A DNA stretch of 64,000 nucleotides, taken from an uncultured Chloroflexia bacterium (GTDB lineage Bacteria > Chloroflexota > Limnocylindria > Limnocylindrales > CSP1-4). This document shows positions 39,052 through 53,345 of the stretch, piece by piece (position 1 is the first letter of the stretch; the number at the start of each line of letters is the position of its first letter). The position numbers and the translations under genes are program-made. The stretch lies in assembly GCA_963713975.1 (NCBI GenBank), contig OY970218.1, positions 704,001 through 768,000 on the forward strand. Direction: 5' to 3'. Under the pieces are notes generated by a model. That model was not told the DNA's origin. It saw only the letters and a program-made list of their open reading frames with translations, and ran no database searches.

Positions 39052-39390
39052 CTAGAACCCGGCGCCGGCCGCGCCGCTCTCCGTAACGGTGCCGTCGGCC
39101 GTCTCGACGAGCCGCGGAGCGCCCCGCTCGGCGCGAAGGCGGTTCGCGTACTCCAGGCTGCCCTTGGCGCCGGACGCAACATCGGCGCGGGCGGGGATCA
39201 CGTTGTTGAAGTAGTCGTGATGGGCAACCGATCCCAGGACGCAGGTTCCGTCCTCGAGGGCACGTTCGATCGCGCGCGGGAGCTCGCCTTGCTGCTTCCA
39301 GCCCTCGCCGTTGTCGATCAGGTGCTGCAGGAATGCGACGGGGTAATGATCCAGGCCGTCCTGGACGTTCTCGGGGTTGAAGTCGGTCAA
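39052..39390 (-). CDS. Small hypothetical protein
   Basis: TTG start after GAAAGG. Natural-looking composition LQHLIDNGEGWKQQG...GTCVLG...DYFNNVIPAR..V..GAKGS..Y. Confidence 0.65.
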   Translation of the reverse strand: MTDFNPENVQDGLDHYPVAFLQHLIDNGEGWKQQGELPRAIERALEDGTCVLGSVAHHDYFNNVIPARADVASGAKGSLEYANRLRAERGAPRLVETADGTVTESGAAGAGF

Positions 39391-39508
39391 GGAGGAGCCC
39401 TTTCGTCCTGAGGGGCGGGGATGGGAGGTGGGACGCCTCCGCAGCATTGTAGGGCCGCCGGCCGAGCGAGACCGCCCGTGTCACCGCGCCGGGCTACCAT
39501 CGCCGGGC

Positions 39509-40261
39509 ATGGCTCCCGAGGCGCTCGTCTTCCTGTTCATCGCGGGCGTCGCCGCCGGGATCGTCAGCGTCCTTGTGAGCCTCGCGTCGCTGATCTCGTA
39601 CCCCGCGCTCCTTGCCGTGGGCCTGCCGCCGGTCTCCGCCAACGTGACCAACACGGTGGCCCTTGTGTTCACGGGGGTCGGGGCCGGGCTGGGGTCGCGA
39701 CGGGAGCTCGTCGGGCTGGGCCCGCTCCTCGCCCGGCTCGCGATCGCGGCGGCCGTCGGCGGGCTGACGGGCGCAACCCTGCTGCTGATCCTGCCGAGCC
39801 GCGTGTTCGAGCTGGTGGCCCCATGGCTGATCGCCGGGGCCTCGATCCTGGTCCTGGTCCAGCCCCGTCTCCGCACGCTCCGGGTCGCCCGCGCACCCGG
39901 GATGCGGCCGCTGACCGTCGCCGTGTACACGGCCACCGCCGTCTACACGGGCTACTTCGGGGCCGCGGGCGGCATCCTCGCGCTCGTCGCGCTGAGCTCG
40001 ATCATCGCGCGTCCGTACCACGACGTGAACGCCTCCAAGAACACGCTGGCGGCGGTGTCCAACGGGGCCGCGGCCCTGCTGTTCATCCTGCTGGGCCCCG
40101 TGGAGTGGGCGTCGGTCGTGCCGCTCGCGGCGGGGCTGTTCGTGGGCGGCCTGATCGGCCCGGCGATCGCCCGTCGCGTGCCGGCCGCCTTGCTGCGGGT
40201 GCTCGTCGCCGCCTGCGGGCTGGCCGTCGCCGCGGTGCTCGCCTGGGGGACGTACCGCTAG
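39509..40261 (+). CDS. Sulfite exporter TauE/SafE (TSUP) family membrane protein
   Basis: SLISYPALL..GLPPVSANVTN and YTGYFGAAGG motifs, ~8 TM segments. Confidence 0.85.
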   Translation: MAPEALVFLFIAGVAAGIVSVLVSLASLISYPALLAVGLPPVSANVTNTVALVFTGVGAGLGSRRELVGLGPLLARLAIAAAVGGLTGATLLLILPSRVFELVAPWLIAGASILVLVQPRLRTLRVARAPGMRPLTVAVYTATAVYTGYFGAAGGILALVALSSIIARPYHDVNASKNTLAAVSNGAAALLFILLGPVEWASVVPLAAGLFVGGLIGPAIARRVPAALLRVLVAACGLAVAAVLAWGTYR

Positions 40262-40276
40262 GGGCGACGGCCGTGC

Positions 40277-41092
40277 TCAGGGCAGCGGCTCGAGGACGTC
40301 GCCCACCTTCACCAGACCCGGTCGCTCCACCTCGGCGTACATCCCGAACGGGACACCGCGCGGCTCATGCATCAGCGGCCGGTACTCCGAGATCCGCTTG
40401 AGCGTGTCGAAGTCCTTGTCACCGGTGTCCGGGTCCCGTGTGGTCGCCACGCAGCGCGGCACGGGCCCCAGGATCCGCACGACGGCGTCCCCGATCCGGA
40501 CGGAGCTTCCCTCCCAGCCATCCTCCTCGTACGGCACGCAGCCGTCCAGCTCCAGGTTCATCCGGAAGCGGCGCGGGTCCAGGTCCGGCCGCCCGCTCCG
40601 AGTCCCGAGATCCGCGACGGAGGCCAACGAGACGAGCGAGAGCCGGTGGACGTCAGGGCCGTCTCCCTCCGCGTCGGCGCAGACCAGCCGCAGTGGCCGG
40701 CCGGTGAACGCTGCGATCGCCTCTGCGGCGTGTCCCTCGACGAACCGCCCCGGAACCGGGCGGCCGTAGAAGTCCGTCACGTGCCGGGTCCCGAGATCTT
40801 GCGTGCTCGAGACCGCCTCCGTCCCATCGGGCAGCTCGATCCTGAGCGTCCCGGCGTCGGCGTCCCAGGTCACTTCCAGCCGCATCAGGAGACCGAGATC
40901 GCCACAGCTGAACAGGGCGCCGCCATCATCGACGAGGTGGAAACGGCGGTTGCCGGGAATGCCCAGCCGCGTGAGCTCGACGGTCCCGGGATGCAGCAGG
41001 CGCGTTCCCTTCAGGGGTGTGACATTGAATCGCGCCACGCGCGGCGCCAGGCCACAAGCCGCCTTCCCGGGTCCCGGGCTCGCGCCGCTCAT
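40277..41092 (-). CDS. MOSC domain protein (MOSC_N + MOSC)
   Basis: TPLKG, NRRF.LVD, RRFRMNL, EEDGW and the conserved Cys in PRCVATT. Confidence 0.88.
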   Translation of the reverse strand: MSGASPGPGKAACGLAPRVARFNVTPLKGTRLLHPGTVELTRLGIPGNRRFHLVDDGGALFSCGDLGLLMRLEVTWDADAGTLRIELPDGTEAVSSTQDLGTRHVTDFYGRPVPGRFVEGHAAEAIAAFTGRPLRLVCADAEGDGPDVHRLSLVSLASVADLGTRSGRPDLDPRRFRMNLELDGCVPYEEDGWEGSSVRIGDAVVRILGPVPRCVATTRDPDTGDKDFDTLKRISEYRPLMHEPRGVPFGMYAEVERPGLVKVGDVLEPLP

Positions 41093-42675
41093 CGTGAGAC
41101 CAGGCGGGCCGATGCCCGGTGAATGGCCGCAAGGAGCGCGGCGCCACCGCCGGACGGCGTCAGGAGGTTCGGCTGTGCGGAGCCCACCTCGAGCGTCGGG
41201 TACAGCGTGACCTGGGCCACCCGGGTGCCACTGAACGTGAGCTCGACGAGGATGCCCTGCTGCGTCCGCGCGTCGTGCACGAGGCCGAACACGAGGTCGC
41301 CCATGGAGTAGACGACGGGCCGGTTGCCGAACAGCCGGATGGGACCGGCCCAGTGGGAGTGCCCGCCAAGAACCGCGTCAGCGCCCGCCTTCAGGATCGC
41401 CGGAGCGAGCTTCGCCTGCTGGGCGTTCAGCCGGTCCGTGTACTCCGTACCCCAGTGGGGCACGACGATCACCACGTCGGCACCGGCCCGACGCGCCTTC
41501 CCGATGTCCGCACGCACGGCCGACAGCGTGAGGCCGGCCGCACCGGCCGAAGTGGCGGTGGCCTGGGGCGCCCCACCGATCCCGTTGTAGGCCAGGATGG
41601 CGATCCGGAAGCCGGACGCGGTCAGCCAGGCCGGCCGGCGGGACTGGGTCCTGGTTCGTCCTGCGCCGGCGTGACGGATCCCGAGCGCGTCCAGGTTTCG
41701 GATCGTGTCCCGGATCCCACTCGCGCCCCAGTTGCGGATGTGGTTGTTGGCAACCGAGACGACATCGATCCCGGCGTTGCGGAGGCCCTTGAGGAGGCGT
41801 GGGTCCATCGAGAAGGTGAACCCGGTGGGGTGGTAGCGGAAGTTGTCCGGCGCGGGACCCTCGAGGTTGACCAGCGCCACGTCGGCGCGGCGGAGGAGCG
41901 TCCTGACAGCGCCATTCCTGCTGATCCGGGCGCCCCGCACGATCCGGAAGCCCGGATAGCCGCAGCAGTAGCGGTCCGCGATCCTGGCCGTGCCACCGTT
42001 CCATGGATAGTCGGCACCCAGGCCGTCGATCACCGTGCGCCGGTAGACGGTGCGGTCCAGCATCACGTCGCCGCCCGCAACGAGGGTCCATGCCTCGGAC
42101 GACCGGTACGTGGACGGCGCGGATCCCTCCGGTTCCGCGACCAGCAGCGGCCAGTTGGCGAGGTCGCGGACCCTCGACCCGCCGAACAGGCTGGCGCCGT
42201 CGACACCGAGCGCGCGGACCGAGGACGTGACGTCCTCCGCGCGAAGGAACCCCAGTGCACTGGGCGATGACGCCAGCGTCGCCCGGATCGCGGCCGGCGT
42301 GGCGGTGTGGACATTCGGCCCGGGGCGCACGTTCAGCAAGGCGGCGAGCGCCGGCAGGTCTGCCGCCGGGACCAGGACCCGGCGTGGGTCCTTGCCCTTG
42401 CCGGCGACGGCGGCGACCAGGGCACTCCGTCCGATGGATCGCTCGGTCGACCAGAACCCTGTCACGGGCACCATCGGAACCAGCACCGGCGACACCGCGA
42501 CAGCGGGCACGACACCCGGGACCGCCGCGGGCAGCCCGGCCGACAGCACACGGGCCGGGCCGGCCGGGCGCGCAGGAGCCTCCGCATGGGTGCTGGCCGC
42601 GCAGCCGGCGAGCGTCGCGGCAAGCAGTAGCGCCGCGACCATCCTCGGCGCGGACCGGCTCTTCTGGCTGCTCAC
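41089..42675 (-). CDS. CapA/PgsA-family metallophosphatase-fold lipoprotein
   Basis: Lipobox LAGC, GGDVML, VNLEG, VANNH, PHWGTEY, GGHSHW and YSMGD. Confidence 0.88.
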   Translation of the reverse strand: MSSQKSRSAPRMVAALLLAATLAGCAASTHAEAPARPAGPARVLSAGLPAAVPGVVPAVAVSPVLVPMVPVTGFWSTERSIGRSALVAAVAGKGKDPRRVLVPAADLPALAALLNVRPGPNVHTATPAAIRATLASSPSALGFLRAEDVTSSVRALGVDGASLFGGSRVRDLANWPLLVAEPEGSAPSTYRSSEAWTLVAGGDVMLDRTVYRRTVIDGLGADYPWNGGTARIADRYCCGYPGFRIVRGARISRNGAVRTLLRRADVALVNLEGPAPDNFRYHPTGFTFSMDPRLLKGLRNAGIDVVSVANNHIRNWGASGIRDTIRNLDALGIRHAGAGRTRTQSRRPAWLTASGFRIAILAYNGIGGAPQATATSAGAAGLTLSAVRADIGKARRAGADVVIVVPHWGTEYTDRLNAQQAKLAPAILKAGADAVLGGHSHWAGPIRLFGNRPVVYSMGDLVFGLVHDARTQQGILVELTFSGTRVAQVTLYPTLEVGSAQPNLLTPSGGGAALLAAIHRASARLVSR

Positions 42676-43826
42676 TGGCCGGCGATCTCCCGCATGGCGA
42701 TCACGGCGCGATCGATGTCGTCGCCCGTGGTGAACATACCGAGGCTGAAGCGCACCGCCCCCCGGTCAATGGTCCCGAGGTCCCGATGGACGAGCGGCGC
42801 GCAGTGCACGCCAACCCGCACGGCGATGCCGTAGTCGCCGTCGAGGATCGAACCCACGTCCTGCGGGTGGATGCCGTCCACGTTGGCGGTCAGGACCGCG
42901 ACGTGATCGGCGAGGTCGTCCGCCGCATAGAGGGTCACGCCGGCGATCGCCGCGAGGCCGTCCCGCAGGCTGGTCAGCAGGCTGGTCTCCCGGGCATGGA
43001 TGACGTCGAGGCCCTCGCCCTCCACGAACCCCAGGCCCGCAAGGAGGCCGATCACCCCCAGCAGGTTGAGGGTGCCCGCCTCGAGCCGGAGCGGGTATGT
43101 GCGGCTGTGGTCGAGGCTGGCGGAATCCATGCCCGTGCCGCCGAAGCGGGTCGTACCGACATCCAGGTCGGGCCGCAGGACCAGCCCGCCGATCCCGGTG
43201 GGCCCGTAGAGCGACTTGTGCCCGGTGAAGACGACGCCGGCGACGCCGAGCGCCGCCATGTCGACCGGGACCTGCCCCGCGGACTGGGCGGCATCGATGA
43301 CGACGGGGACGTCACGCTCGGCACACAGGCGGGCGATCTCGCCAACCGGCTGGACGGTGCCAAGGACGTTCGAGGCGTGGGTCATCACGACCAGGCGCGT
43401 CCGTGGTCCCAGCAGCCCGGCGACGGCGTCCGGGTCCACGATCCCCTGCCCGTCGAACGGAGCCGCGTCCCACGTGATCACGCCCGTCTCCGCCAGGTGA
43501 TGGAGCGGACGCAGCACGGAGTTGTGGTCGAGCCGCGTGGTGATGACGTGGTCGCCGGGACGGACCAGACCGCCGATCACGGTGTTCAGCGCGTCGGTGG
43601 CGTTGGCGCCGAAGACCACGCGGTCGGGATCGGGAGCGTCGAAGAAACGGGCGACCCGGGCCCGGGCCTCGTCCACCAGCTCGCCCGCCTGCGCCGCCAG
43701 GTCGTGGTTGCCCCGCCCGGGCGAGGCACCCAGGCGCCGGTACGTCGCGACCATCGCCTCCAGGGTCCCGGGCGCCTTGGGAAACGTGGTCGCGGCGTTG
43801 TCGAGATAGACGAGGTGATCGGTCAC
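42672..43826 (-). CDS. Class V PLP enzyme, cysteine desulfurase/selenocysteine lyase family
   Basis: YLDNAATT, HASNVLG, DAAQ, TGHK (PLP Lys), EAGT and catalytic-Cys motif RVGVHCA. Confidence 0.9.
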   Translation of the reverse strand: MTDHLVYLDNAATTFPKAPGTLEAMVATYRRLGASPGRGNHDLAAQAGELVDEARARVARFFDAPDPDRVVFGANATDALNTVIGGLVRPGDHVITTRLDHNSVLRPLHHLAETGVITWDAAPFDGQGIVDPDAVAGLLGPRTRLVVMTHASNVLGTVQPVGEIARLCAERDVPVVIDAAQSAGQVPVDMAALGVAGVVFTGHKSLYGPTGIGGLVLRPDLDVGTTRFGGTGMDSASLDHSRTYPLRLEAGTLNLLGVIGLLAGLGFVEGEGLDVIHARETSLLTSLRDGLAAIAGVTLYAADDLADHVAVLTANVDGIHPQDVGSILDGDYGIAVRVGVHCAPLVHRDLGTIDRGAVRFSLGMFTTGDDIDRAVIAMREIAGQ

Positions 43827-43838
43827 GGCTCGGGTCCG

Positions 43839-44180
43839 TCAGTCCAGACACGTCTTGGGATTGGGCAGCCCGGCGAGGCGCCGCGCCCCCATCTTGATGC
43901 CATCCGGGAACAGGTGCTCGAGCCTGAGCAACGGCAGGTCCGTCCCGGCCTTGAGGTCGCGGTTCATCGGCGCGCGTCCGTTGTCCAGGTAGTAGCGGCG
44001 CATGAAGTGGAGGACGTGCCAGTGCACGTCGTCGAGGCGCTCCATGCCGCTCTCACGGGCGAGCTCCTCGGCGGCCACCTCGGACCAGTCGTCTGCATCC
44101 CAGAAGAACCCCTCGTCATCGAACCAGACGTCGCGGCCCGCGACCGCGCGCTGGACGCGCGACCGTGCCGGTTCCGCCAC
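43839..44180 (-). CDS. TusE/DsrC-family sulfur relay protein
   Basis: DDEGF...WSE.AA.ELA, HW.V..FMR.YY, LFP.G and LAGLPNPKTC (single C-terminal Cys). Confidence 0.88.
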   Translation of the reverse strand: MAEPARSRVQRAVAGRDVWFDDEGFFWDADDWSEVAAEELARESGMERLDDVHWHVLHFMRRYYLDNGRAPMNRDLKAGTDLPLLRLEHLFPDGIKMGARRLAGLPNPKTCLD

Positions 44181-44190
44181 TGCCCCGGGC

Positions 44191-46884
44191 TCAGGTCGCG
44201 GCAGCGACCGGCTCCGGGGCCGGCACCGCAGCAGCCAGGGCCGTCTTCACCCGCTCCGGCGTGGCCGGCAGCTCGTAGACCATGGCGCCGCAGGCGTCGC
44301 GGATCGCGTTCACGATCGCGGGGGCGGTGGACACCATCGCCATCTCGCCGATGCCGACGGAGCCGAGCGTGCCCAGCTCACGGGGCGTCTCGACGAGGAT
44401 GGTCTCCATGTCCATGGCGTACCGGATGTTGGGGAACTTGAAGGTGATCCAGTCCCTCGACTTGCCGGCCACGTACTCCTCGCGGAGCGCGAACCCGGCA
44501 CCCATGTCCATGCCGCCGTGGAGCTGGCCCTCGACGTTGGCGGGGTGGATCACGACGCCCGGATCGGCGGCCGCCGTGAGCTTGACCACCTTGACCTCGC
44601 CCGTGTCGGTGTTCACCTCGACCTCGGCCATCTGGACCGAGAAGACCTGGACCTCGAACGACGGCCCGAGACCGGTCTCGGGGTCGAGCGGCGCCGTCTC
44701 GAGCGTGGTGCGCTTGCCCGCGTACCGGACGGGCCTGCCGGCGGCCGTGATGGCCTCGTAGGTCCGGGCGCCCACCTCGTCCATCGTCTCGCGTAGCTGC
44801 CGCGCGGCGTCAACCGCGGCCCCGCCGAGCATGTAGGTGGCGCGGCTTCCCGATACCGGGCCCGACGCCGCCGTGTCCGCGGTGCTGCGGGTGCGGAGAC
44901 GCACCCTCGCCGGCGGCAGGTCGAGGACCGATGCCACCAGCTGGCTGATCATGGAGTCGTTGCCCTCGCCCGGGTCGCCGGCGGCGATGTAGACCGTCAC
45001 CCCGTCGTCGGGATCGAGCTCCACGAACCCCATGGACTTGTCGCCCGGCATGGCGATCCCGAACGACGCCGCACCGAGGCCCACGCCCCGGCGGACCGGG
45101 CCGCCGGCGGGCTGGCGCGCCTTGTCGGCGAGCGCGGCCTCATAGCGACCTTCGATCGCGTCGCACAACCCCGGGAACGGCCACTCGGTCACGACGTGCC
45201 CGGTCGCCATCGCCTCGCCCGGCTGGAGCGAGTTGCGGCGCCGGAACTCGAGCGGGTCGATGCCAATCTTCTCGGCCAGCAGGTCCACGGCGCACTCGAG
45301 CGCGTAGTGCGTCTGGGGCGGCCCGGCCCCGCGGGCGGCGCTGCCCCACGGATTGTTGGTGTAGACCAGCCGTGACGTCACGGCCAGGTTCGGGACCAGG
45401 TACGAGCTGGTCAGCATGTGCAGCGCCCGGTTGACGATCACGCGGCCCAGCGACATGTAGGCGCCGTTGTCCACGGTGATGTCCATGGCCATCGCGGTAA
45501 GGCGGCCGTCCGCGTCCGCGGCAAGCCGCGTCTCGACCTCCATGGGATGCCGCTTGGACGACGCGAGCATGGACTCGGCCAGGCTGGGCACATAGCGCAC
45601 CGGACGCCCGAAGTGGAGCGCCGCGGCGCCCGCGATGCCCTCCGTGATGATCTCGACCTTGATTCCGAACTGGCCGCCCGAGAACGGCTCCTCGTAGCGG
45701 ATGGCCTCCCAGCCGAGGGCCTCCTGGAGCGTCGCCATGTGGAGGTGGATGTTGATGCTGCGGCCGACGACGACCAGCTCGGCATCCTCACCCTCCCCCT
45801 CGAGCCAGGCCAGGCTGACCTCGGGCTCCATGGGCGCCTGGTGCACGATCTGGGTCTTGAACCTGGCCGTGACCTCGACGGCCGACGTCGCGAACGCGGC
45901 AGCCGCATCGCCCTTGATGATCGGCTGGCTGTAGCACAGGTTGGGGCTGTCCTCGTGCACCCTCGGGGCGTCATCGGCGAGGGCCGCCGATGGCGAAACG
46001 AGGACCGCGATCGGCTCGTAGTCCACGATCACGGCTTCGGCCGCAGCCAGCGCCTGCGCCCCGGTCTCGGCAGCGACGATCGCGACCGCGTCGCCCAGCG
46101 TTCGCACCTTCGTGTCGCACAGGATGGGTCGGTCCGCGGCCTGGTACTTGAGCCGGTTCGTGCCCTTGATGTCCCTGGCCGTCAGGACGCCCGCGACGCC
46201 GGGCATGGCCGCCGCGGCGGACGTGTCGATGCCGCGGATCCAGGCGTGCGCATGCGGACTGCGGACGGCCGCGATCTCGAGTGCCCCGGGCATCCGGATG
46301 TCCGCGCCAAAGCGGGCCGTGCCGGTGGCCTTGGCCATGGCCGACGGTCGGGGGAACGAGGTCCCGATCGCGGGCGCATCGGCCGGTGGCACGAGGTCCG
46401 CGGGCGTCACCTCACCGCGCAGGAAGCGTCCGGCCAGCTGGACGGCGTCGATGATCTTGACGTAGCCGGTGCAGCGGCAGAGGTTGCGGCGCAGCGCACG
46501 CTTGACTTCGTCCCGCGTGGGGTTGGGGTTGCCCGCCAGCAGCTCCTCCGCCGTCACGATCATGCCCGGGATGCAGAAGCCACACTGGACGGCGCCGGCC
46601 AGGACGAAGGCCTGCTGCACGAGGTTGGGCCGATCCGGCGTGCCCAGGCCCTCGATCGTGACGACCTCGGCGCCGTCGAGCGGCGCGACCTTGGTGATGC
46701 ACGACAGGACGGCCTTGCCGTTCACCAGCACCATGCAGGTCCCGCACTGGCCCTTGCGGTCACAGGACTGCTTGGTCCCGGTCAGGCCGAGGTCGTCACG
46801 GACGACGTCGAGCAGGATGGTCTCCCGCTCGTCGGCCACGATCTCGACGGGCCGTGCGTTGACGGTGAGGCTGACCTTCTTCAC
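44191..46884 (-). CDS. Mop-like single-chain aldehyde oxidoreductase (2x[2Fe-2S] + Mo-MCD domains, no FAD domain)
   Basis: SCDRKGQCGTC, QCGFC, CRCTGY, GGQFGIK, WGSAARG and GIGEM (catalytic Glu). Start GTG 46884 after GGAGG gives ~897 aa. Confidence 0.88.
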   Translation of the reverse strand: MKKVSLTVNARPVEIVADERETILLDVVRDDLGLTGTKQSCDRKGQCGTCMVLVNGKAVLSCITKVAPLDGAEVVTIEGLGTPDRPNLVQQAFVLAGAVQCGFCIPGMIVTAEELLAGNPNPTRDEVKRALRRNLCRCTGYVKIIDAVQLAGRFLRGEVTPADLVPPADAPAIGTSFPRPSAMAKATGTARFGADIRMPGALEIAAVRSPHAHAWIRGIDTSAAAAMPGVAGVLTARDIKGTNRLKYQAADRPILCDTKVRTLGDAVAIVAAETGAQALAAAEAVIVDYEPIAVLVSPSAALADDAPRVHEDSPNLCYSQPIIKGDAAAAFATSAVEVTARFKTQIVHQAPMEPEVSLAWLEGEGEDAELVVVGRSINIHLHMATLQEALGWEAIRYEEPFSGGQFGIKVEIITEGIAGAAALHFGRPVRYVPSLAESMLASSKRHPMEVETRLAADADGRLTAMAMDITVDNGAYMSLGRVIVNRALHMLTSSYLVPNLAVTSRLVYTNNPWGSAARGAGPPQTHYALECAVDLLAEKIGIDPLEFRRRNSLQPGEAMATGHVVTEWPFPGLCDAIEGRYEAALADKARQPAGGPVRRGVGLGAASFGIAMPGDKSMGFVELDPDDGVTVYIAAGDPGEGNDSMISQLVASVLDLPPARVRLRTRSTADTAASGPVSGSRATYMLGGAAVDAARQLRETMDEVGARTYEAITAAGRPVRYAGKRTTLETAPLDPETGLGPSFEVQVFSVQMAEVEVNTDTGEVKVVKLTAAADPGVVIHPANVEGQLHGGMDMGAGFALREEYVAGKSRDWITFKFPNIRYAMDMETILVETPRELGTLGSVGIGEMAMVSTAPAIVNAIRDACGAMVYELPATPERVKTALAAAVPAPEPVAAAT

Positions 46885-47101
46885 GAGACGCTGGTCCCTC
46901 CGGGCTCCAGGCTCACCGGGCACCATGCGCCGGTGGCGGCGGGCGAGTCCCTCCGCTGATGACAGGAGCCGATCGTAGTCGGGGCCGGTGCCGCTCACGA
47001 TGAGCCGGACGGCCCGTCGTCGTGGCCCACCCGGGCCACCGGAGCGAGCCGGCCCACGGTGCGTCATCGACGCGTCACGCACGGGCGCGATGCTGCCGGA
47101 C

Positions 47102-48433
47102 ATGCTCCTCACCCTGGCATTCGCGGCGCTCGCGGGGCTGCTCACGATCCTGAGCCCTTGCGTGCTGCCCGTCATCCCGCTCATCGTGGGCGCCGCGGCC
47201 GGGCGCGATGGGCGCGACGACGCATCGTCCGGCATGCGCCGCGTCGCAGGGATCGCCCTTGGCTTCGGGGCGGCGTTCATCGTCGGAACCATCCTGCTCG
47301 CCTCCACGCTCGCGGCCGCCGGCGTGACGACGAGCCAGCTGCGCACGGCAAGCGCGCTCCTGCTGGTGGCCTTCGGGGCGACGCTCGCCTTCCCGGCCCT
47401 TGGTCGCCTCGTCGAACGGTGGGCGAGCCGGGCGACCTCGAAGCGGGCGACGGGGCTCGCCCCCGCCTCGAGCGGGTTCGCCGGCGGTGTCGCCCTCGGC
47501 GCGGCCATCGGGCTCATCTGGTCCCCGTGCGTCGGGCCGATCATGGCGAGCGTCATCGCGACGGCGGTCTCCGCCGGACCCACGGCAGACGCCATCCTGG
47601 TCTCGCTGGCCTACGTGATCGGCGTGACCGTGCCGCTGGCCGCGATCGCGCTCGGCGGCCGGGGCGCGGTACGGCGGCTCGGGAGTGCGGAGCGCCGCTC
47701 CACGCTGGTTCGGGTGTTCGGCGGCCTGACCATGGCCGGCGGCCTGCTCGTAATCACCGGTCTGGACATCCCGCTGCAGACCCGGGTGGCGGCCATGCTG
47801 CCCGACGACTGGACCCGCGCGGTCGCGGCCGTGGGTGAGGGACCGGTGGCGGGTGGTGCGGAGGCACTGCCCGGCGGGGCTTCGGCGGACGGCGGGTCAG
47901 CCGATCCGGCCCGCGAGCCACTGCTGAACGTCGACGGGCGCCCGCTGCCCGCCCCCGTCGCCGACGCGCTGCCGGCCGCGGTCCCGCTCGAGGACCTGGG
48001 ACCGGCTCCGGAGCTGACGGGGATCTCGGACTGGATCAACTCGGATCCGCTGACGCTCAAATCCCTGCGCGGCAAGGTGGTCCTCGTGCACTTCTGGACC
48101 TTCGGCTGCATTAACTGCGTCCACGTCCAGCCGTACGTGAAGGCCTGGTACGACCGATATGCCGACGCCGGCCTCGTCGTGCTCGCCGTCCACACGCCGG
48201 AGCTGTCCTACGAGCGGGACGTGGCGAACGTCCGCGACGCGGTGGCCCGCGAGGACGTCAGGTATCCGGTGCCGATCGACCCCGGCTTCGCCACGTGGAA
48301 GGCGTACGGGAACCGCTACTGGCCCGCCTTCTACTTCGTGGACCGCGAGGGACGGATCCGCCACGTGGCGGCGGGCGAGGGCCGCTACGACACCAGCGAG
48401 CAGGTGATCCGGGAGCTGCTGGCGGGCTTCTGA
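47102..48433 (+). CDS. DipZ-like CcdA-thioredoxin fusion
   Basis: CcdA Cys motifs SPCVLP and WSPCVGP, and redoxin domain FWTFGCINC...HTPE...NRYWPA. Confidence 0.88.
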   Translation: MLLTLAFAALAGLLTILSPCVLPVIPLIVGAAAGRDGRDDASSGMRRVAGIALGFGAAFIVGTILLASTLAAAGVTTSQLRTASALLLVAFGATLAFPALGRLVERWASRATSKRATGLAPASSGFAGGVALGAAIGLIWSPCVGPIMASVIATAVSAGPTADAILVSLAYVIGVTVPLAAIALGGRGAVRRLGSAERRSTLVRVFGGLTMAGGLLVITGLDIPLQTRVAAMLPDDWTRAVAAVGEGPVAGGAEALPGGASADGGSADPAREPLLNVDGRPLPAPVADALPAAVPLEDLGPAPELTGISDWINSDPLTLKSLRGKVVLVHFWTFGCINCVHVQPYVKAWYDRYADAGLVVLAVHTPELSYERDVANVRDAVAREDVRYPVPIDPGFATWKAYGNRYWPAFYFVDREGRIRHVAAGEGRYDTSEQVIRELLAGF

Positions 48434-48453: not shown

Positions 48454-50037
48454 TCAGAGCTGCTTGTAGCGCGGCCCCTCGCCGCCCTCGGGCGGCACCC
48501 ACTTGATCGCGTCGGCCGGGCACTTCACCGTGCACGACATGCAGTGGAGGCAGTTCGACGGCGAGAGCACGATCTCAGACCCGCTCCAGCGGTAGACCTG
48601 GCCGGGGCAGAAGTGCGTGCACGCGTTCGCGTAGTCCGCCTCGCAGCTGACGCATTGCTGCGCATCCGTGATGGTGATGTGCGGCGGCTCGTCCTCACGG
48701 TGGATGGTCCCCGTCAGCGCGACGAACGTCGCCCCGTCCATGCGTCCCGGGTCGGGCCGGTTCAGCCGGGCACCCTTCCTCGTCGCCGCTCCGTCGCGGT
48801 GGATCCCCAGCCGGGCCGGGATCTTCGACTGGATGAGCGAGAGCGGCGTGCCCACGAACAGGCCGTACTTGAAGACCTGGCGGTAGTTGCGGGCGTGCTT
48901 GAACTCGGCCAGCATGCCGCTCGCCTCGAGCCGGGCGCGGTAGCCGTCCAGCGGGCCGACGGTCCCATCCGGGCCGAGCGCCTCGAGCGCGGTGTCCGCG
49001 GCCGCCATCCCGGAGCGGATCGCGTAGTGGATCCCCTTGATCTTCTCCATGTTGACGAAGCCGGCGCCGTCGCCGGTGACCATCGCGCCGGGGGCGGACA
49101 GGGCGCCCATCGCTTCGACCCCGCCCTCCGGGATCGTCTTGGCACCTGTGGCCACCGTCACGCCGCCCTCGAGCAGCCGGCTGATGAACGGGTGCGCCCG
49201 GAAGGTCTCGAACTCGCGCTGCGGGTTGAGGTCGCCGTACTTCCAGTCGAGGCCCAGGATCAGGCCGACGGCGACGGTCTTCTCGCCCATCGCATACAGG
49301 AAGCCACCGCCGAAGACGCTGGGCGGGTTCGGGTAGCCAAGCGTGTGCATGACCCGGTTGGTGCCGAACGGGCTTGCCTCCGGGAACTGGACGATGGCCT
49401 TCATGCCCAGCGAGTAGACCTGCGGGTTCGCCCCGCCGCCGAAGGCCTGGGTGAACTCGGTCGAGAGCACACCGTGCGTGCCGTCCGCGAGGATCGTGAT
49501 CGGGGCGCGGATCTCCTCGGCCGGAAGGTGATTGCCCTTGGGCGTGCCGTCCTGGGCGAGCCCGACGTCTGCGAGCCGGACGCCACGGACGACGCCGTCC
49601 TCGATGATCAGCGTGCGCGCCGTGTAGCCGTGATAGACCTCGACGCCGGCCGCCTCCGCCTGCTCCGCGAGGAACTGGGCCAGCCGCGATACGGAGATGA
49701 TGTAGTCGCCGGCGTGGTGCATGCGCGGCGGCACGACCCGGGCCGGGATGCGGTTGGCGGCCTTCGCCCGCAGGAAGTACATGTCGTCGCGTTCGACCGG
49801 GACCAGGCCGGCCGTGAACGGATGGCGGATGTCCTTCCAGCCGGGCAGCAGGTCGTCCAGGCAGGCGGCCTCGAACGCCGCGCCGGACAGCGTGTGGTTG
49901 CCGGCTGCGGGAGCCTTGTCGATCACCGCGACCGCCAGCTCCCGGCCGGCGGCGGCCGCCTGCTGCCGGGTGCGGATCGCAGCTGCCAGGCCGGCCGGGC
50001 CGGCGCCGACGACGAGGACGTCGATGCCATCCATCAC
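48454..50037 (-). CDS. ETF:quinone oxidoreductase (FixC/ETF-QO) with fused ferredoxin (FixX-like) domain
   Basis: GAGPAG, HTLSGA, KTIPEGG, GDGAGFVN..KIKGIH, and C-terminal CVSC...CTHFCP...CLHCMSCTVKCP. Confidence 0.88.
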   Translation of the reverse strand: MMDGIDVLVVGAGPAGLAAAIRTRQQAAAAGRELAVAVIDKAPAAGNHTLSGAAFEAACLDDLLPGWKDIRHPFTAGLVPVERDDMYFLRAKAANRIPARVVPPRMHHAGDYIISVSRLAQFLAEQAEAAGVEVYHGYTARTLIIEDGVVRGVRLADVGLAQDGTPKGNHLPAEEIRAPITILADGTHGVLSTEFTQAFGGGANPQVYSLGMKAIVQFPEASPFGTNRVMHTLGYPNPPSVFGGGFLYAMGEKTVAVGLILGLDWKYGDLNPQREFETFRAHPFISRLLEGGVTVATGAKTIPEGGVEAMGALSAPGAMVTGDGAGFVNMEKIKGIHYAIRSGMAAADTALEALGPDGTVGPLDGYRARLEASGMLAEFKHARNYRQVFKYGLFVGTPLSLIQSKIPARLGIHRDGAATRKGARLNRPDPGRMDGATFVALTGTIHREDEPPHITITDAQQCVSCEADYANACTHFCPGQVYRWSGSEIVLSPSNCLHCMSCTVKCPADAIKWVPPEGGEGPRYKQL

Positions 50038-51926
50038 TTGGCCTCCTGGGTCGCGGAAACGAGCTGCGGAACGACCGTCTCGAGATCGCCCACGACGCCG
50101 AAGTCCGCGTAGTTGAAGATCCGCGCCCGCGGGTCCTTGTTGATCGCGACGACCGTGTCGGACATCTGCATCCCGGACACGTGCTGCACGGCCCCCGAGA
50201 TGCCAACCGCGACGTACAGCTTGGGCGCGACGGTCTGGCCGGTCTGGCCGACCTGGTAGTCGTGGGTCGAGTAGCCGTCCTCGACCGCGTGGCGCGAGGC
50301 CGCCACCTTGGCGCCGTCACCCAGCACGCGTTCCAGCCCCTCGGCGAGCGGGCCGAGCAGGCGCTCGAAGTCCGCCTTGGAGTGGATGCCGTGCCCGCCT
50401 GCCACGATGATCTTGGCGTCGCGGATGCTGACCTTGGAGGTGAACGACTCGACGGGTGTCACGCGAACGCCGTCCGCGGTGTCGCCGAGCTCGGGGGTGA
50501 CCCGGATGATCTCGCCGGTCCGCCTGGGGTCGGGCGCCGGGACCTTGAACACGCCGGGGCGGACCGTCGCCATCTGGGTCGGCGAATCCTTGGTCATGAT
50601 CGTGGCCATGATGTTGCCGCCAAGCGCCGGACGGGTCTGCTTGAGGATGCCGACCAGGTCCTGGGAGCCCTTGGCGTAGTCGCCGATCTCCAGCTTCGTG
50701 CAATCGGCGGTGAGGCCGGAGTCGCAGGCGTACGCGATGCGCGGAGCGAGCTCGCGGCCCATCGGCGTCGCGCCGAACAGCATCACCTGCGGCTTGTGGT
50801 CGCGGACGAGGCCCGCAACAGCCTCCTTGTAGGGCAGCGGGGCGAACTCGGCCAGGCTCGGGTGCTCCACCACGTAGACCACGTCTGCCCCGTGGGCCAC
50901 CAGCTCCGCCGGCAGATCGCCCGCCTCCGCCACCGGCAGGACGGCCACGACGTGCTCGCCCAGGAATGCGGCCAGCTCGCGCGACTTGCCGAGGAGCTCC
51001 AGCGAGACGGACTTGAGGCCGTCGCCGTCGCGCTCCGCGAGGACCCAGAACCCGCCGTGGTAGGTGGGCTCCCGGCCATCGAGCGCATACGCGCCTTCCT
51101 CATGCACCTCCGGTCCGCCGGTCGCCAGGCGGTACTTGGCCTGGACCCTCCGGATCAGCTCTGCCGGGTCGTTGAGCATCTCGCACGTCTTCGCACGGTC
51201 CTCGGACGGCGAGAAGATCCGGTACACCGTGGTCCGGGAGCCCTTGATCCCAACCTTGTCCGGCGTGGCGCCCACGTCGGCGGCGCTCCACGTGTGGATC
51301 GTGGTGGCGCGTGCCGCACGCGCGCTGTGGAAGCTGCGGTACAGGGTGTCCGTGCAGGCAGTGACCGTCACCAGGGCCGGGAAACGGACCGGGACCACGT
51401 CCTCGGTGCCCTGGGCCCCGATCCGCCGGAAGGTGAGCTCCGGGTCCGTGTGCACGTCCTGCGCGTACGCGACCTGGTCGATGCCCAGGTCCTCCGCAAT
51501 CTGGGGCGGAACCTGTGCGGTGTCGCCGTCCACGGACTGCATGCCGGTGACGATCAGGTAGTCGCGACTGCCGTCGAACAGCTCCCGCTCGATGCGGCGG
51601 ATCGCCAGCGCCAGCGAGTAGGCGGTCGCGACCGTGTCGGCACCGCCCATCACGCGGTCGGTGAGCAGGACGGCGTCACCGGGAGCCCTCGAGATGCACT
51701 CGGTGAGGACCTCACGGGCCTGGGGCGGACCCATCGTGAGGTAGACGGTCTTCGCACTCGGGTCGCCGGCGGTGATCCGCCGCGCGAACGAGAGGGCGTG
51801 GAGGTCCAGCGGGTTGAGGATGCTGTCGAGCAGGGCGCGACGGAGCGTTCCCTTCTCGCGGTCCCACGCGTCTTCCGGGATGTTGCTGACGTCCGGGACC
51901 TGCTTGACGAGGACGATGCAGTGCAT
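50034..51926 (-). CDS. Fused electron transfer flavoprotein beta-alpha (EtfB-EtfA / FixA-FixB)
   Basis: N-half: VLVKQVPD, TMGPPQA, ADTVATA, DGDTAQV. C-half: GLTADCT, RPALGGN, QVGQTG, GISGAVQH, AINKD. One uninterrupted frame. Confidence 0.9.
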   Translation of the reverse strand: MHCIVLVKQVPDVSNIPEDAWDREKGTLRRALLDSILNPLDLHALSFARRITAGDPSAKTVYLTMGPPQAREVLTECISRAPGDAVLLTDRVMGGADTVATAYSLALAIRRIERELFDGSRDYLIVTGMQSVDGDTAQVPPQIAEDLGIDQVAYAQDVHTDPELTFRRIGAQGTEDVVPVRFPALVTVTACTDTLYRSFHSARAARATTIHTWSAADVGATPDKVGIKGSRTTVYRIFSPSEDRAKTCEMLNDPAELIRRVQAKYRLATGGPEVHEEGAYALDGREPTYHGGFWVLAERDGDGLKSVSLELLGKSRELAAFLGEHVVAVLPVAEAGDLPAELVAHGADVVYVVEHPSLAEFAPLPYKEAVAGLVRDHKPQVMLFGATPMGRELAPRIAYACDSGLTADCTKLEIGDYAKGSQDLVGILKQTRPALGGNIMATIMTKDSPTQMATVRPGVFKVPAPDPRRTGEIIRVTPELGDTADGVRVTPVESFTSKVSIRDAKIIVAGGHGIHSKADFERLLGPLAEGLERVLGDGAKVAASRHAVEDGYSTHDYQVGQTGQTVAPKLYVAVGISGAVQHVSGMQMSDTVVAINKDPRARIFNYADFGVVGDLETVVPQLVSATQEAK

Positions 51927-52313
51927 TGAGACCTTCAGGCGTGGTGCTCGGACGACGATCGCTCGCCGACCCAGCCGCAGACGGCGTTGAACGGCTCCCG
52001 ACGGGACCTGCCACATGCAGGCGCACCGGTCCCCCTGTACATCACGCCATCGGGCATGGGCCTGGGGACGACACGCAGGAACGTGGGCGAGCTCCGGCGG
52101 TACCGCACCCCAAGCATAGGAAACCTGCCGGTCGGCCGACGGGGCCATTGGTCCCGCAGATCCCGTCCGCCGGCTGCCGCTGGACAGGCACGGCGGCCCA
52201 CGTTTCGAGGTGCAATGGGCCCCGCGGAGTGGCCTGCGGATGCGATCGCGACGGGATAGATTGTTCGGCGAATCGTCGGGACGCAGCGACGGCGTGCAAG
52301 AGGTGACAGGAAC

Positions 52314-53345
52314 GTGGAGACGGTCCCGATCGAGGGAAGCACGACGGATGAGGAGACTCCGAGCCTCATCCTCGCCGACGCGCGGCAGTCGCTGGGTCCG
52401 GCCCAACTGGATGACCTGTTTCCCGAGGGCGACATCTTCCGGAAGTCGCTCGAGACGTTCACCGCTCTCCTCGCGCTGGCCGGGTTCATCGCCGCATTCG
52501 GCCTCTACCAGGACTCGGTCGCCTCCATCATCGGCGCCATGCTCGTGGCGCCGCTGGGCGGCGCGATCATGGCCTTCGCGGCAGCGCTGGTCACCGGCCG
52601 GACGCGCTGGCAGGGGATCACCTTCCTCCAGGTCGCGCTGGGCGGGCTGATGGTCATCGCCATCGGGTTCGTGGTCTCGCTCATCCTGCCCGATCCGCTC
52701 GTGCTCACCCCCGCGCTCGAGGCTCGAACGTCACCGGGCCTGCTCGACCTGGGCGTGGCACTCGCGGCCGGGGCCGCCGGAGCCTGGGTGGCAGTTCGCC
52801 GGACAGGCGTCGACGCGCTGCCGGGGGTGGCCATCGCCGTCTCCCTCGTCCCGCCGCTGGCGACCGTAGGGATCTGTCTCGAGCTGGGCCGCCCCTCGGA
52901 TGCCGCCGGCGCCCTGATCCTGTTTCTCACCAACTTCTCCGCGATCGTCGTGATCGCGTGCGTCGTCTTCGTCCTGTCCGGTGTCACGCCCAGCCGCGAG
53001 ATGCTGCGCGAGCGCCACCGGCTGCGCAACGGGTTCATCGTCGCGGTGGTGGCGCTCGTGATCGTCGCCATCCCGCTGGTCTGGCACTCCATTGGGGTCG
53101 TGCAGAGCACCATCCGGTCCACCCAGGGAGCCCCGCTCGTCCGCGCCTGGATCGGCGGACGGGACCTCAAGGTCGTCTCCTGGTCCATCGACGGTCGCGA
53201 TGTCACCATCGAACTGCAGGGATCCGACCCTCCCGCCGAACCCGGGCCCCTCGCGGCGGCCCTGGCGATCAAGTACGGCTCGCCCGTCAGCCTCGAGATC
53301 ACGTACGTGCCGACGGTGCGCGAGTCGGCGACGGCAGCACCATAG
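52314..53345 (+). CDS. DUF389 family membrane protein
   Basis: IIGAMLVAPL and LPGVAIAVSLVPPL motifs. Confidence 0.85.
   Translation: METVPIEGSTTDEETPSLILADARQSLGPAQLDDLFPEGDIFRKSLETFTALLALAGFIAAFGLYQDSVASIIGAMLVAPLGGAIMAFAAALVTGRTRWQGITFLQVALGGLMVIAIGFVVSLILPDPLVLTPALEARTSPGLLDLGVALAAGAAGAWVAVRRTGVDALPGVAIAVSLVPPLATVGICLELGRPSDAAGALILFLTNFSAIVVIACVVFVLSGVTPSREMLRERHRLRNGFIVAVVALVIVAIPLVWHSIGVVQSTIRSTQGAPLVRAWIGGRDLKVVSWSIDGRDVTIELQGSDPPAEPGPLAAALAIKYGSPVSLEITYVPTVRESATAAP

Follow-up and report, generated by a model that had tools for sequence, protein, structure and literature searches.

An aldehyde oxidoreductase, TusE-like protein and cysteine desulfurase gene trio as a candidate sulfur relay to molybdenum

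Genes for a Mop-like aldehyde oxidoreductase (AOR), a TusE/DsrC-like protein and a cysteine desulfurase were found to form a conserved unit that is limited to these three. In the window (the whole 64,000-nt stretch of DNA analyzed, C1:704001-768000) the trio is followed by CapA-like and MOSC genes and faces a TauE gene, all of which were added locally within a single Limnocylindria lineage and lie outside the conserved module. The trio is best read, with modest confidence, as a dedicated relay in which the desulfurase would pass sulfur through the TusE-like protein to the molybdenum of the trio-type AOR. No description of an AOR-TusE-desulfurase system was found in literature searches, and these genes probably deliver sulfur to the AOR metal center along a hitherto undescribed path.

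Gene organization of the locus

Five tightly packed genes on the minus strand span positions 40277-46884. The AOR gene (44191-46884, 897 aa; Fer2, Fer2_2, a/b hammerhead, MoCoBD_1 and MoCoBD_2) begins with GTG, with a GGAGG ~12 nt 5' of this start. As read from the sequence, its stop is followed after 10 nt by the GTG start of the gene for a TusE/DsrC-like sulfur carrier (43839-44180, minus strand, 113 aa; PF04358 DsrC, 87.9 bits; TIGR03342, 69.4 bits, above the 53.5-bit cut-off), and the stop of the latter after 12 nt by the GTG start of the gene for a group II (SufS/CsdA-like) cysteine desulfurase (42672-43826, minus strand, 384 aa; Aminotran_5, 294 bits; TIGR01977, 402.6 bits, above the 377-bit cut-off). 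The desulfurase gene overlaps that of a CapA/PGA_cap-family protein (41089-42675, minus strand, 528 aa; PGA_cap, 210 bits) at a GTGA junction, and this in turn overlaps the gene for a MOSC_N+MOSC protein (40277-41092, minus strand, 271 aa; MOSC, 64 bits, with a weak MOSC_N match) at ATGA. A gene for a TauE/SafE-family anion exporter (39509-40261, plus strand; PF01925, 116 bits) is convergent with the operon, its stop lying 15 nt from that of the MOSC gene. By domain searches and the sequence, the five co-oriented genes and the facing TauE gene were located where the preliminary description had placed them. The absence of XdhC from the window, also remarked there, was borne out: the XdhC matches of the genome, at C1:2754119-2754664 and C1:2760761, represent two genes inside two Cox-type clusters 2 Mb from the window. 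Other class V desulfurase candidates are present in the same genome, and these and the two XdhC genes could act in trans.

Conservation of the three-gene unit

Related loci were counted where AOR identity reached 57% or more and the downstream sequence extended for 1.7 kb or more (n = 43). The TusE-like gene directly follows the AOR gene in 39/43 loci, and in 38/43 the AOR, TusE-like and desulfurase genes stand in this order on one strand with short gaps, the sources being Limnocylindria, Desulfobacterales, Syntrophobacter, another Chloroflexi MAG and an actinomycete MAG; with such recurrence of this order, the arrangement is more than chance. The desulfurase is missing from five of the 43 loci, four of which also lack TusE and are recent paralogues. 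Where genomes carry extra AOR paralogues, all TusE-like genes (7/7) stand after an AOR but only 3/7 are accompanied by a desulfurase, so the carrier is specific to its enzyme, whereas one desulfurase can be common to several. In an unanchored test, the TusE-like query was run against 201 Desulfobacterota genomes; matches of at least 135 bits were obtained in 4/201 (next match, 80 bits), and all four lie directly downstream of a trio-type AOR. The TusE-like gene, whose position is always directly downstream of an AOR of this type, encodes the core partner of the enzyme.

In the AOR tree the rows with TusE and desulfurase form a single clade of 45 (support 85), inside which the AOR of the window falls; a sister clade of nine rows has, in their stead, one NifS-like and one NifU-like gene (support for the joint clade, 100). 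Within 1.5 kb of D. gigas-type Mop orthologues (NF045668 above cut-off), neither a TusE-like nor a desulfurase gene was found (0/11). Few trio loci have adjoining Moco genes: L037 reads ModABC, AOR, TusE, desulfurase, XdhC and MocA-like, and L022 has MoaC and MoaE upstream of the trio. MocA-like and XdhC genes are also present at L042, which is of the NifS type. The proposed association of both TusE and the desulfurase with the AOR is upheld by the gene order kept across phyla, by these occasional Moco neighbors and by the complex model described below.

The AOR, the TusE-like protein and their modelled complex

Two [2Fe-2S] domains and Moco-binding domains were assigned to the AOR by Pfam, and an FAD domain was absent in Pfam and NCBIfam profile searches. 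The closest solved structure is D. gigas AOR (DgAOR; 1sij/1vlb, 608 bits). NF045668 scored 774 bits, below its cut-off of 1100, and the AOR is a member of a distinct subfamily outside the D. gigas Mop orthologue group. The catalytic glutamate is kept (E847, aligned to DgAOR Glu869), as is R518 (DgAOR Arg533), and these residues, typical of aldehyde-oxidizing enzymes, are invariant. Aromatic residues of the DgAOR pocket are replaced by small residues in trio-clade AORs, with Phe425 aligned to V410 and Tyr535 to A520; position 520 is Ala in 45/45 trio-clade AORs versus Tyr or Phe in 10/10 Mop sequences, and position 410 is V, L or I in the clade versus Phe in 9/10 Mop sequences. In DgAOR, benzaldehyde is reported to be sandwiched between Phe425 and Tyr535 (PMC4726530).

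The TusE-like protein ends in NPKTCLD, Cys111 being its only cysteine, and has Arg at the CysB position of DsrC. Cys111 and the C-terminal arm AGLPNPKTC (LPNP..C) are preserved in 41/41 orthologues and invariant in alignment A2. The DsrE/TusBCD family was not found in its own genome (92% complete), and a canonical tRNA-thiolation relay was therefore set aside.

The AOR-TusE complex model scored 0.81 versus 0.00 for the best of three controls; this score is the model's own confidence, and the mark used to judge it was reached by 116/157 solved complexes and 2/215 mismatched pairs, a rough guide here as our own alignments were used. Three runs had at least 91% of contacts in common, with partner pLDDT of at least 83. 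The predicted interface comprises residues 65-74 and 106-113 of TusE and residues 410, 479-486, 516, 520 and 612-620 of the AOR, the latter aligning to DgAOR Phe425, Phe494, Leu497, Ala531, Tyr535 and Leu626. Direct TusE docking on the AOR is supported by the model, in which the C-terminal arm carrying the invariant Cys falls at positions aligning with the substrate pocket. A modelled arm that fills the pocket would also be consistent with TusE acting as substrate, inhibitor or stable subunit.

Proposed relay and alternative readings

The desulfurase, which has the active-site motif RVGVHCA in its translation and SufS/CsdB as its closest solved structures, probably donates the sulfur (or selenium). 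In the relay that we favor, it would remove sulfur from cysteine to form a persulfide on the enzyme, as its family suggests, and pass it to Cys111 on the flexible TusE arm, by analogy with SufS-SufE and CsdA-CsdE. TusE may then dock at the entrance to the substrate tunnel of the AOR with the arm entering the widened pocket, as the complex model and the clade-specific pocket residues suggest, and a terminal sulfido ligand would be installed or re-installed on the molybdenum of the folded AOR. XdhC with NifS4, and likewise ABA3/MOCOS, do the same job for other xanthine-oxidase-family enzymes; the trio would instead use a DsrC-type arm for delivery. A sulfido need of the trio-type AOR is an assumption, as DgAOR, the closest characterized enzyme, is reported not to need this ligand and to be active without one (PMC3877041).

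The same relay might carry selenium, the TIGR01977 enzyme serving as a selenocysteine lyase and a perselenide on the TusE-like Cys yielding Mo=Se, as in selenium-dependent molybdenum hydroxylases; this is considered unlikely. E. faecalis EF_2568/SclA, a TIGR01977 member, is reported to lie in the SDMH locus (PMC2276186; 10.1101/2020.02.07.939272), and the model of the Se-dependent XDH (TIGR03311) ranks second among the NCBIfam models matched by the AOR. However, TIGR03311 scored 556 bits, under its cut-off of 830, the SclA model scored 306.8 bits on the desulfurase, below its cut-off of 525, and for SclA itself the residue deciding Sec versus Cys is given as not established in the latter report (10.1101/2020.02.07.939272). 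SelD is above cut-off in 39/41 trio-bearing genomes and in that of the window, but there its gene adjoins tRNA-Sec, so that its presence is explained by the selenocysteine trait; since almost all genomes of the host genera have SelD (6/7 in g1 and 7/7 in g2; 98/201 in the class), its co-occurrence with the trio is uninformative. SDMH markers were not found in searches for YqeB (best 20.7 bits versus a cut-off of 220) and YqeC (no match). Co-occurrence with selD and yqeB/yqeC, to which the preliminary description had looked, thus leaves its selenation alternative neither supported nor excluded.

It is quite unlikely that the TusE-like protein is instead a substrate, trans-ligand or stable subunit of the AOR, the Cys111 persulfide being bound or transformed at Mo in a counterpart of DsrAB-DsrC that would connect sulfane sulfur derived from cysteine with redox chemistry. 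TusE and AOR paralogues pair one to one, the modelled arm lies inside the substrate pocket itself, the pocket is remodelled across the whole trio clade, and the protein aligns with the DsrC chains of solved DsrAB-DsrC entries (e.g. 2v4j and 2xsj); with its single Cys, however, it lacks a redox pair of the DsrC type. We know of no xanthine-oxidase-family enzyme that acts on a protein persulfide. The invariant aldehyde-oxidizing Glu and Arg also argue against this reading, as do the genes around trio loci (W-AFOR, aldehyde dehydrogenase, class III aminotransferase and BCAA transporters), which are indicative of aldehyde and amino-acid catabolism. A TauE-family exporter, counted in favor of this reading, adjoins the trio in only four loci (the window, L009, L011 and L013) but is not conserved with it, and in G103 no TauE lies between MOSC and ORF131.

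Little credence is given to a split ABA3, as put forward in the preliminary description, in which MOSC would be an integral Moco-holding acceptor in the lineage of the window and sulfur would pass from desulfurase to TusE, to MOSC-bound Moco and to the AOR. The order of domains in ABA3 is NifS-like, MOSC_N, MOSC, and the MOSC protein, of the mARC/YcbX/ABA3-C-terminal type, keeps the Mo-binding Cys motif; its gene lies directly after the desulfurase gene in L013 (~10 nt) and L009 and is coupled to it via CapA in the window and L011, and in L037 another Moco-binding protein, XdhC, takes the equivalent place. Against this, the nearest solved relative is a reductase, human mARC1 (6fw2), to which the protein aligns across the RC..TT.DPDTG motif, and MOSC homologues occur in 53/201 genomes of the class versus 6/201 for the TusE-like gene. 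Outside trio genomes, the two closest orthologues (70% identity in G103 and 65% in G226) stand amid unrelated genes, and the TusE-like gene was not found in either genome. With such near orthologues occurring on their own where the trio is absent, the split-ABA3 idea is weakly supported. Of the suggested co-occurrence of AOR, TusE and desulfurase, with or without MOSC, the trio stood; a MOSC match was not found in the related loci examined other than the four named.

Supply of sulfur by the desulfurase and the TusE-like protein to the two [2Fe-2S] clusters of the AOR, rather than to molybdenum, could be indicated by the NifS and NifU-like pairing of the sister clade, whose NifU_N-like protein has four conserved Cys, but is highly improbable: TusE/DsrC proteins are not known to serve as scaffolds for Fe-S clusters, which a single Cys is unable to build, the arm is modelled in the Mo substrate pocket, the Mop orthologues share the same clusters yet lack these genes, and the other desulfurase candidates of the genome could do the housekeeping work.

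CapA, the N-terminus of which resembles a lipoprotein signal by eye, is a lineage-specific passenger despite the start/stop overlaps with its neighbors. Only in the window and L011 does its gene stand between the desulfurase and MOSC genes; other loci lack it except L009, L040 and L050, where it is upstream of the AOR gene, and L012, where it lies ~8 kb upstream.

Organization of the operon

Five genes follow one another on the minus strand of the window, in a genome of 3.62 Mb and roughly 70% G+C whose relatives go under the names Candidatus Limnocylindrales or Chloroflexota MAG. The row begins with a Mop-like molybdenum aldehyde oxidoreductase (AOR; 44191-46884, 897 aa), which has a GTG start with GGAGG on its 5' side and carries Fer2, Fer2_2, hammerhead (Ald_Xan_dh_C), MoCoBD_1 and MoCoBD_2 domains without an FAD domain. 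It is followed by a TusE/DsrC-family protein (43839-44180, 113 aa), a class V cysteine desulfurase (42672-43826, 384 aa), a PGA_cap/CapA protein (41089-42675, 528 aa) and a MOSC_N plus MOSC protein (40277-41092, 271 aa), and a TauE/SafE gene on the plus strand (39509-40261) converges on the row. Domain matches and translation of the window agree with the preliminary description on this arrangement, as does the window sequence on the junctions (gaps of 10 and 12 nt, then overlaps of GTGA and ATGA), and XdhC is missing from the window as had been stated. The two XdhC genes of the genome lie at 2.75 Mb, in a pair of Cox-type three-subunit molybdenum hydroxylase clusters (G000:C1:2746000-2765999, on the window's own contig; locus L130), the first with CoxD-like AAA, CoxE VWA, XdhC and MocA-like genes and the second with an XdhC carrying a YHS domain.

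Conservation of the three-gene association

Relatives of the AOR were collected by scanning one genome per species, which gave 70 loci (L numbers) onto which the window's proteins were placed by tblastn. Among the 43 loci of the trio clade (AOR identity of at least 57%, with at least 1.7 kb of sequence downstream), the TusE-like gene lies immediately 3' of the AOR gene in 39 (59-90% identity) and is accompanied by the desulfurase (46-88% identity) in 38, which bears out the co-occurrence of the three genes anticipated in the preliminary description; L025, L031, L041 and L064 lack both genes, and L028 has the TusE-like gene only. The association of AOR, TusE-like protein and desulfurase is real, and no widely shared neighbor beyond these three was found when all ORFs of 61 loci were clustered. 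The trio clade is represented in Limnocylindria, Desulfobacterales and Syntrophobacter, and also in another Chloroflexi MAG (L037) and in one actinomycete MAG (L068). Cultured carriers of the trio among them are Desulfocicer vacuolatum DSM 3385, Desulforhopalus singaporensis DSM 12130 and Desulfosarcina variabilis, so the idea of a sulfur relay is directly testable.

At an AOR identity of about 55% (6 loci) a NifS-like gene, 26-30% identical to the desulfurase, is present instead, accompanied in 5 of the 6 by a NifU_N-like protein in which four cysteines are conserved; at about 31% (10 loci) the TusE-like, desulfurase, NifS-like and NifU_N-like genes are all missing. The sister AOR clade, with a NifS-like desulfurase and, in place of TusE, a small NifU_N-like protein, includes L046:12715-14561, L042:4277-8640, L049, L047, L060 and L089-L091, and the L042 contig is labeled as a Thermoproteota archaeon MAG.

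The TusE-like protein was also used as a query in four genomes whose AOR had no partners or the TusE-like gene only; it returned 7 homologues, each directly 3' of an AOR paralogue, with a desulfurase beside just three of them. In a sample of 201 Desulfobacterota genomes that was not anchored on the AOR, the same query reached 135 bits or more in 4, and all four matches adjoin a trio-type AOR; the next score was 80 bits (DsrC and others). Since the TusE-like genes of both searches (7/7 and 4/4) adjoin an AOR and the desulfurase accompanies only 3/7, carrier and enzyme form one-to-one pairs and the desulfurase can be shared. A Desulfosarcina MAG (G025; L109, L113, L114 and L115) holds four AOR-TusE pairs, one of which has a desulfurase within 1.5 kb.

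The AOR and its relatives

The AOR has the make-up of a Mop-type single chain, with two [2Fe-2S] domains, an a/b hammerhead and two Moco-binding domains and with FAD_binding_5 unmatched, and its eight cluster cysteines are invariant in the AOR alignment. Its best solved match (608 bits) is the Mop enzyme of Desulfovibrio (Megadesulfovibrio) gigas (DgAOR), likewise a single FAD-less chain with two [2Fe-2S] and Moco domains, and E847 and R518 align with Glu869 and Arg533 of that enzyme and are present in 45/45 clade members. Against the Mop equivalog model NF045668 the window AOR scores 774.4 bits, below the cut-off of 1100. A search of the 201 Desulfobacterota genomes with this model gave 11 matches above the cut-off (1166-1701 bits, 35-39% identical to the window AOR), here called Mop orthologues, and neither a TusE-like gene nor a desulfurase was found within 1.5 kb of any of them (0/11), whereas the window AOR has both. 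The same search returned 4 matches belonging to the type of the window AOR (57-64% identity), each with both genes, and 3 of the NifS type, each with a NifS-like gene. Activity of DgAOR is reported with an oxo ligand replacing the sulfido ligand (PMC3877041), and orthologues without the partner genes are in keeping with this reported sulfido independence.

A FastTree tree was built from 69 full-length AORs, partial or frameshifted AORs among L009-L108 being excluded by a length filter. It contains a joint clade of 54 rows (support 100) made up of the NifS type (9 rows, support 100) and the TusE/desulfurase type (45 rows, support 85), and four rows without partner genes are near-identical recent paralogues. 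Limnocylindria rows are nested among Desulfobacterota rows and the TusE-like gene occurs in just 6/201 genomes of the window's class, which together suggest that the trio was transferred between phyla.

The TusE-like carrier

The TusE-like protein belongs to the TusE/DsrC/DsvC family (PF04358, 87.9 bits; TIGR03342, 69.4 bits against a cut-off of 53.5). All 41 orthologues have one cysteine (Cys111 in the window), in a C-terminal arm of the form AGLPNPK[TAS]C, and it is invariant in the TusE-like alignment. The position of the DsrC CysB, about ten residues before the C-terminal cysteine, is occupied by Arg in alignments with 2xsj_C and 2v4j_C, and a second conserved cysteine was not found among the 41 orthologues. 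The score against the TusE equivalog NF008562 is 43.9 bits (cut-off 191), and the DsrE/TusBCD family (PF02635) was not found in the window's genome, which is 92% complete. On these three grounds, the Arg at CysB, the low equivalog score and the missing DsrE/TusBCD, the protein is neither DsrC proper nor a tRNA-thiolation TusE. It shares its family and its single C-terminal cysteine with the E. coli TusE of the TusA-TusBCD-TusE-MnmA relay, from which it differs in always adjoining an AOR gene.

The desulfurase, sulfur and selenium

The desulfurase is of group II (PF00266, 294 bits; TIGR01977, 402.6 bits against a cut-off of 377; motif RVGVHCA), and its nearest solved structures are SufS/CsdB and also CsdA. 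It resembles the SufS-SufE/SufU and CsdA-CsdE systems in pairing an RxGxHCA desulfurase with an adjoining gene for a small single-cysteine acceptor, but here the acceptor is of the TusE/DsrC family and the target is likely a molybdoenzyme rather than Fe-S assembly.

The preliminary description had also raised selenation, for which selD and yqeB/yqeC were to be followed as markers. According to PMC2276186 and 10.1101/2020.02.07.939272, the TIGR01977 family includes the selenocysteine lyase SclA (EF_2568) of the Enterococcus faecalis selenium-dependent molybdenum hydroxylase locus, whose gene likewise lies beside a fused 2Fe-2S/Moco hydroxylase; the window's desulfurase scores 306.8 bits against the SclA model NF040779, below its cut-off of 525. 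No residue decisive for selenocysteine versus cysteine specificity is identified for SclA in 10.1101/2020.02.07.939272. Of the markers, selD did co-occur, in 39/41 trio genomes, yet SelD is near-universal in the two host genera (13/14) and present in 98/201 genomes of the class, tallies that include a few unpublished genomes, none of them a trio carrier, so a phylogenetic profile is powerless to point to selenium. YqeB and YqeC did not follow: in the window's genome YqeB gave 20.7 bits only (cut-off 220) and YqeC was unmatched. SelD itself (348.7 bits) is encoded directly beside tRNA-Sec outside the window (G000:C1:670053-671174); the organism therefore decodes selenocysteine, and its SelD is explained by that machinery.

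Modeled complex and substrate pocket

The AOR was folded together with residues 13-113 of the TusE-like protein from the respective alignments. The complex scored 0.81, 0.80 and 0.84, and the highest score among 3 controls was 0.00; the score mark is reached by 116/157 solved complexes and 2/215 mismatched pairs, counts that serve as a rough calibration only, as custom alignments were used. At least 91% of contacts were common to the runs and the partner pLDDT was at least 83. We know of no similar complex that has been solved.

The modeled interface on the TusE-like side comprises the invariant loop 65-74 and the arm 106-113, and on the AOR side residues 247-248, 366-367, 378-384, 393-394, 410, 479-486, 516, 520, 612-620, 668-679 and 722-729, of which 366-367 are part of an insertion missing from Mop. 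By alignment, V410, L479, V482, A516, A520 and M612 correspond to Phe425, Phe494, Leu497, Ala531, Tyr535 and Leu626 of DgAOR. In the latter, according to PMC4726530, benzaldehyde is sandwiched by Phe425 and Tyr535 and Ala531 lines the active site. With the modeled interface mapped onto DgAOR in this way, the model places the cysteine-bearing arm at positions aligned with the substrate pocket. The aromatic sandwich of DgAOR is thus V410/A520 in the window AOR, and the replacement is general: position 520 is Ala in 45/45 of the trio clade versus Tyr or Phe in 10/10 Mop orthologues, position 410 is Val, Leu or Ile versus Phe in 9/10, and position 479 is Leu, Ile or Met in 44/45 versus Phe in 10/10. 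Judged from these residues, the substrate pocket is widened exactly in the clades with a desulfurase partner. The AOR was also searched for a cysteine specific to the clade and close to the Mo site, without a convincing candidate; C317 is 98% conserved in the clade but lies outside the modeled interface.

MOSC, CapA and TauE genes

MOSC and TauE genes lie beside the trio in the window, L009, L011 and L013 only. CapA separates the desulfurase from MOSC only in the window and L011, and is found elsewhere in L009, L012, L040 and L050; its position around the trio is mobile (upstream in L009, L040 and L050, inside in the window and L011). The window's CapA protein (41089-42675, minus strand) has about 190 extra N-terminal residues with a lipoprotein-like signal, LLLAATLAGC, recognized by eye.

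In the MOSC protein the cysteine motif PRCVATTRDPDTG is matched by SRCILTTVDPDTG in human mARC1 (6fw2), and its cysteine is presumably Mo-binding. MOSC homologues occur in 53/201 genomes of the class, a count that again takes in a few unpublished genomes without the trio. The closest orthologues outside trio genomes, in G103 (70% identity) and G226 (65%), stand alone among unrelated neighbors, DUF2652 and PhzF in one and RNase HII and EF-Ts in the other, and the TusE-like gene was not found in either genome. The suggestion that MOSC and desulfurase form a split version of ABA3 is consequently unlikely to be right, and MOSC is rejected as a member of the module on its distribution in four loci and on these stand-alone orthologues. 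The likeness to ABA3/MOCOS lies in a desulfurase dedicated to xanthine-oxidase-family enzymes and, in the four Limnocylindria loci, in a MOSC_N plus MOSC gene 3' of it; the difference is that the two parts are encoded by separate genes, which CapA divides in the window, and that MOSC is adjacent in those loci only. ABA3 acts, to our knowledge, without a TusE-like carrier. The coupling of MOSC to the operon in the window's lineage is real at the DNA level, yet recent and dispensable.

An ORF of 131 aa without a Pfam match (39052-39447, minus strand) is 63-91% identical in 10 Limnocylindria trio loci and also adjoins the stand-alone MOSC gene of G103.

Proposed route of molybdenum sulfuration

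Two routes for supply of the sulfido ligand are known to us: bacteria use XdhC-type chaperones together with a desulfurase, and eukaryotes use ABA3/MOCOS. The best explanation for the trio, favored here by a modest measure, is an enzyme-specific sulfuration of Mo in which sulfur would pass from the desulfurase to the TusE-like arm and on to the metal, a DsrC-type arm bringing persulfide directly into the substrate tunnel of the already folded AOR. Such an arrangement would resemble XdhC with NifS4 (Rhodobacter capsulatus XDH) and PaoD (E. coli PaoABC) in having enzyme-specific accessory genes beside a xanthine-oxidase-family enzyme, and in L037 XdhC and MocA-like genes do lie 3' of the trio; it would differ in that most trio loci lack XdhC, which adjoins the trio in L037 only, in that the carrier is of the TusE/DsrC type, and in that this carrier is modeled as docking on the folded enzyme, not on chaperone-bound Moco. 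The review PMC2997495 gives a cysteine desulfurase as the sulfur source for the Mo=S ligand in the XdhC/PaoD systems.

The TusE-like protein has the fold family of DsrC (63.8 bits to 2xsj_C) and a conserved C-terminal arm ending in cysteine. In DsrAB-DsrC (2v4j, 2xsj) the DsrC arm reaches the buried active site, as the TusE-like arm is modeled to do in the AOR substrate pocket. An unlikely reading takes this parallel further and makes the protein a working partner rather than a one-off maturation factor: a Cys111 persulfide would sit at Mo, as a removable Mo-S-S-Cys ligand or as the actual substrate, and the pair would be a molybdenum counterpart of DsrAB-DsrC, acting on sulfane sulfur that the adjacent desulfurase takes from cysteine and that is bound to protein. 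The partner here is an unrelated molybdenum hydroxylase, and the second DsrC cysteine is replaced by Arg; the role of the TusE-like protein is probably sulfur delivery rather than that of a co-substrate.

If enzyme-specific sulfuration through the TusE-like arm is correct, it would be a new, third route of Moco sulfuration, and the DsrC/TusE family would gain a role besides those in tRNA thiolation and sulfite reduction. The long dispute over the need of Mop-type aldehyde oxidoreductases for the sulfido ligand would also become more tractable, D. gigas-type enzymes, which are reported to be independent of it, being without the TusE and desulfurase genes and the sister subfamily having both almost without exception. 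A relay of AOR, TusE/DsrC and desulfurase was not found described in the literature searched, which covered papers available without subscription, and the words TusE, DsrC, TusA and MOSC do not occur in a review of the sulfido ligand of October 2026 (PMC13653126).

Genomic context

MoaC and MoaE genes lie upstream in L022, and in L042, a locus of the NifS type, a MocA-like gene and XdhC come after the NifS-type genes. A full maturation cluster is present in L037:3493-16596, where a second AOR and ModABC are followed by AOR, TusE, desulfurase, a 105-aa protein, XdhC, XdhC_N and a MocA-like cytidylyltransferase. A W-AFOR gene is directly upstream in several Desulfobacterales and an aldehyde dehydrogenase is present in 11 loci; with a class III aminotransferase, a sigma-54 activator and BCAA transporters as further neighbors, these genes point to aldehyde and amino-acid catabolism.

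Directly upstream of the window AOR and on the same strand are genes for ETF beta and alpha and an ETF-QO/FixC-like protein with a 4Fe-4S domain (48454-52730, minus strand), which may be the electron acceptor of the FAD-less AOR in Limnocylindria. ETF genes are also found at L009:4333-7826 and L013:4789-8267, in L009 forming one same-strand row with CapA, AOR, TusE and desulfurase. A fused DsbD/CcdA-type membrane and redoxin gene (46988-48433, plus strand) is divergent from the AOR gene in the window, and its counterpart lies beside the AOR in L011 and L013.
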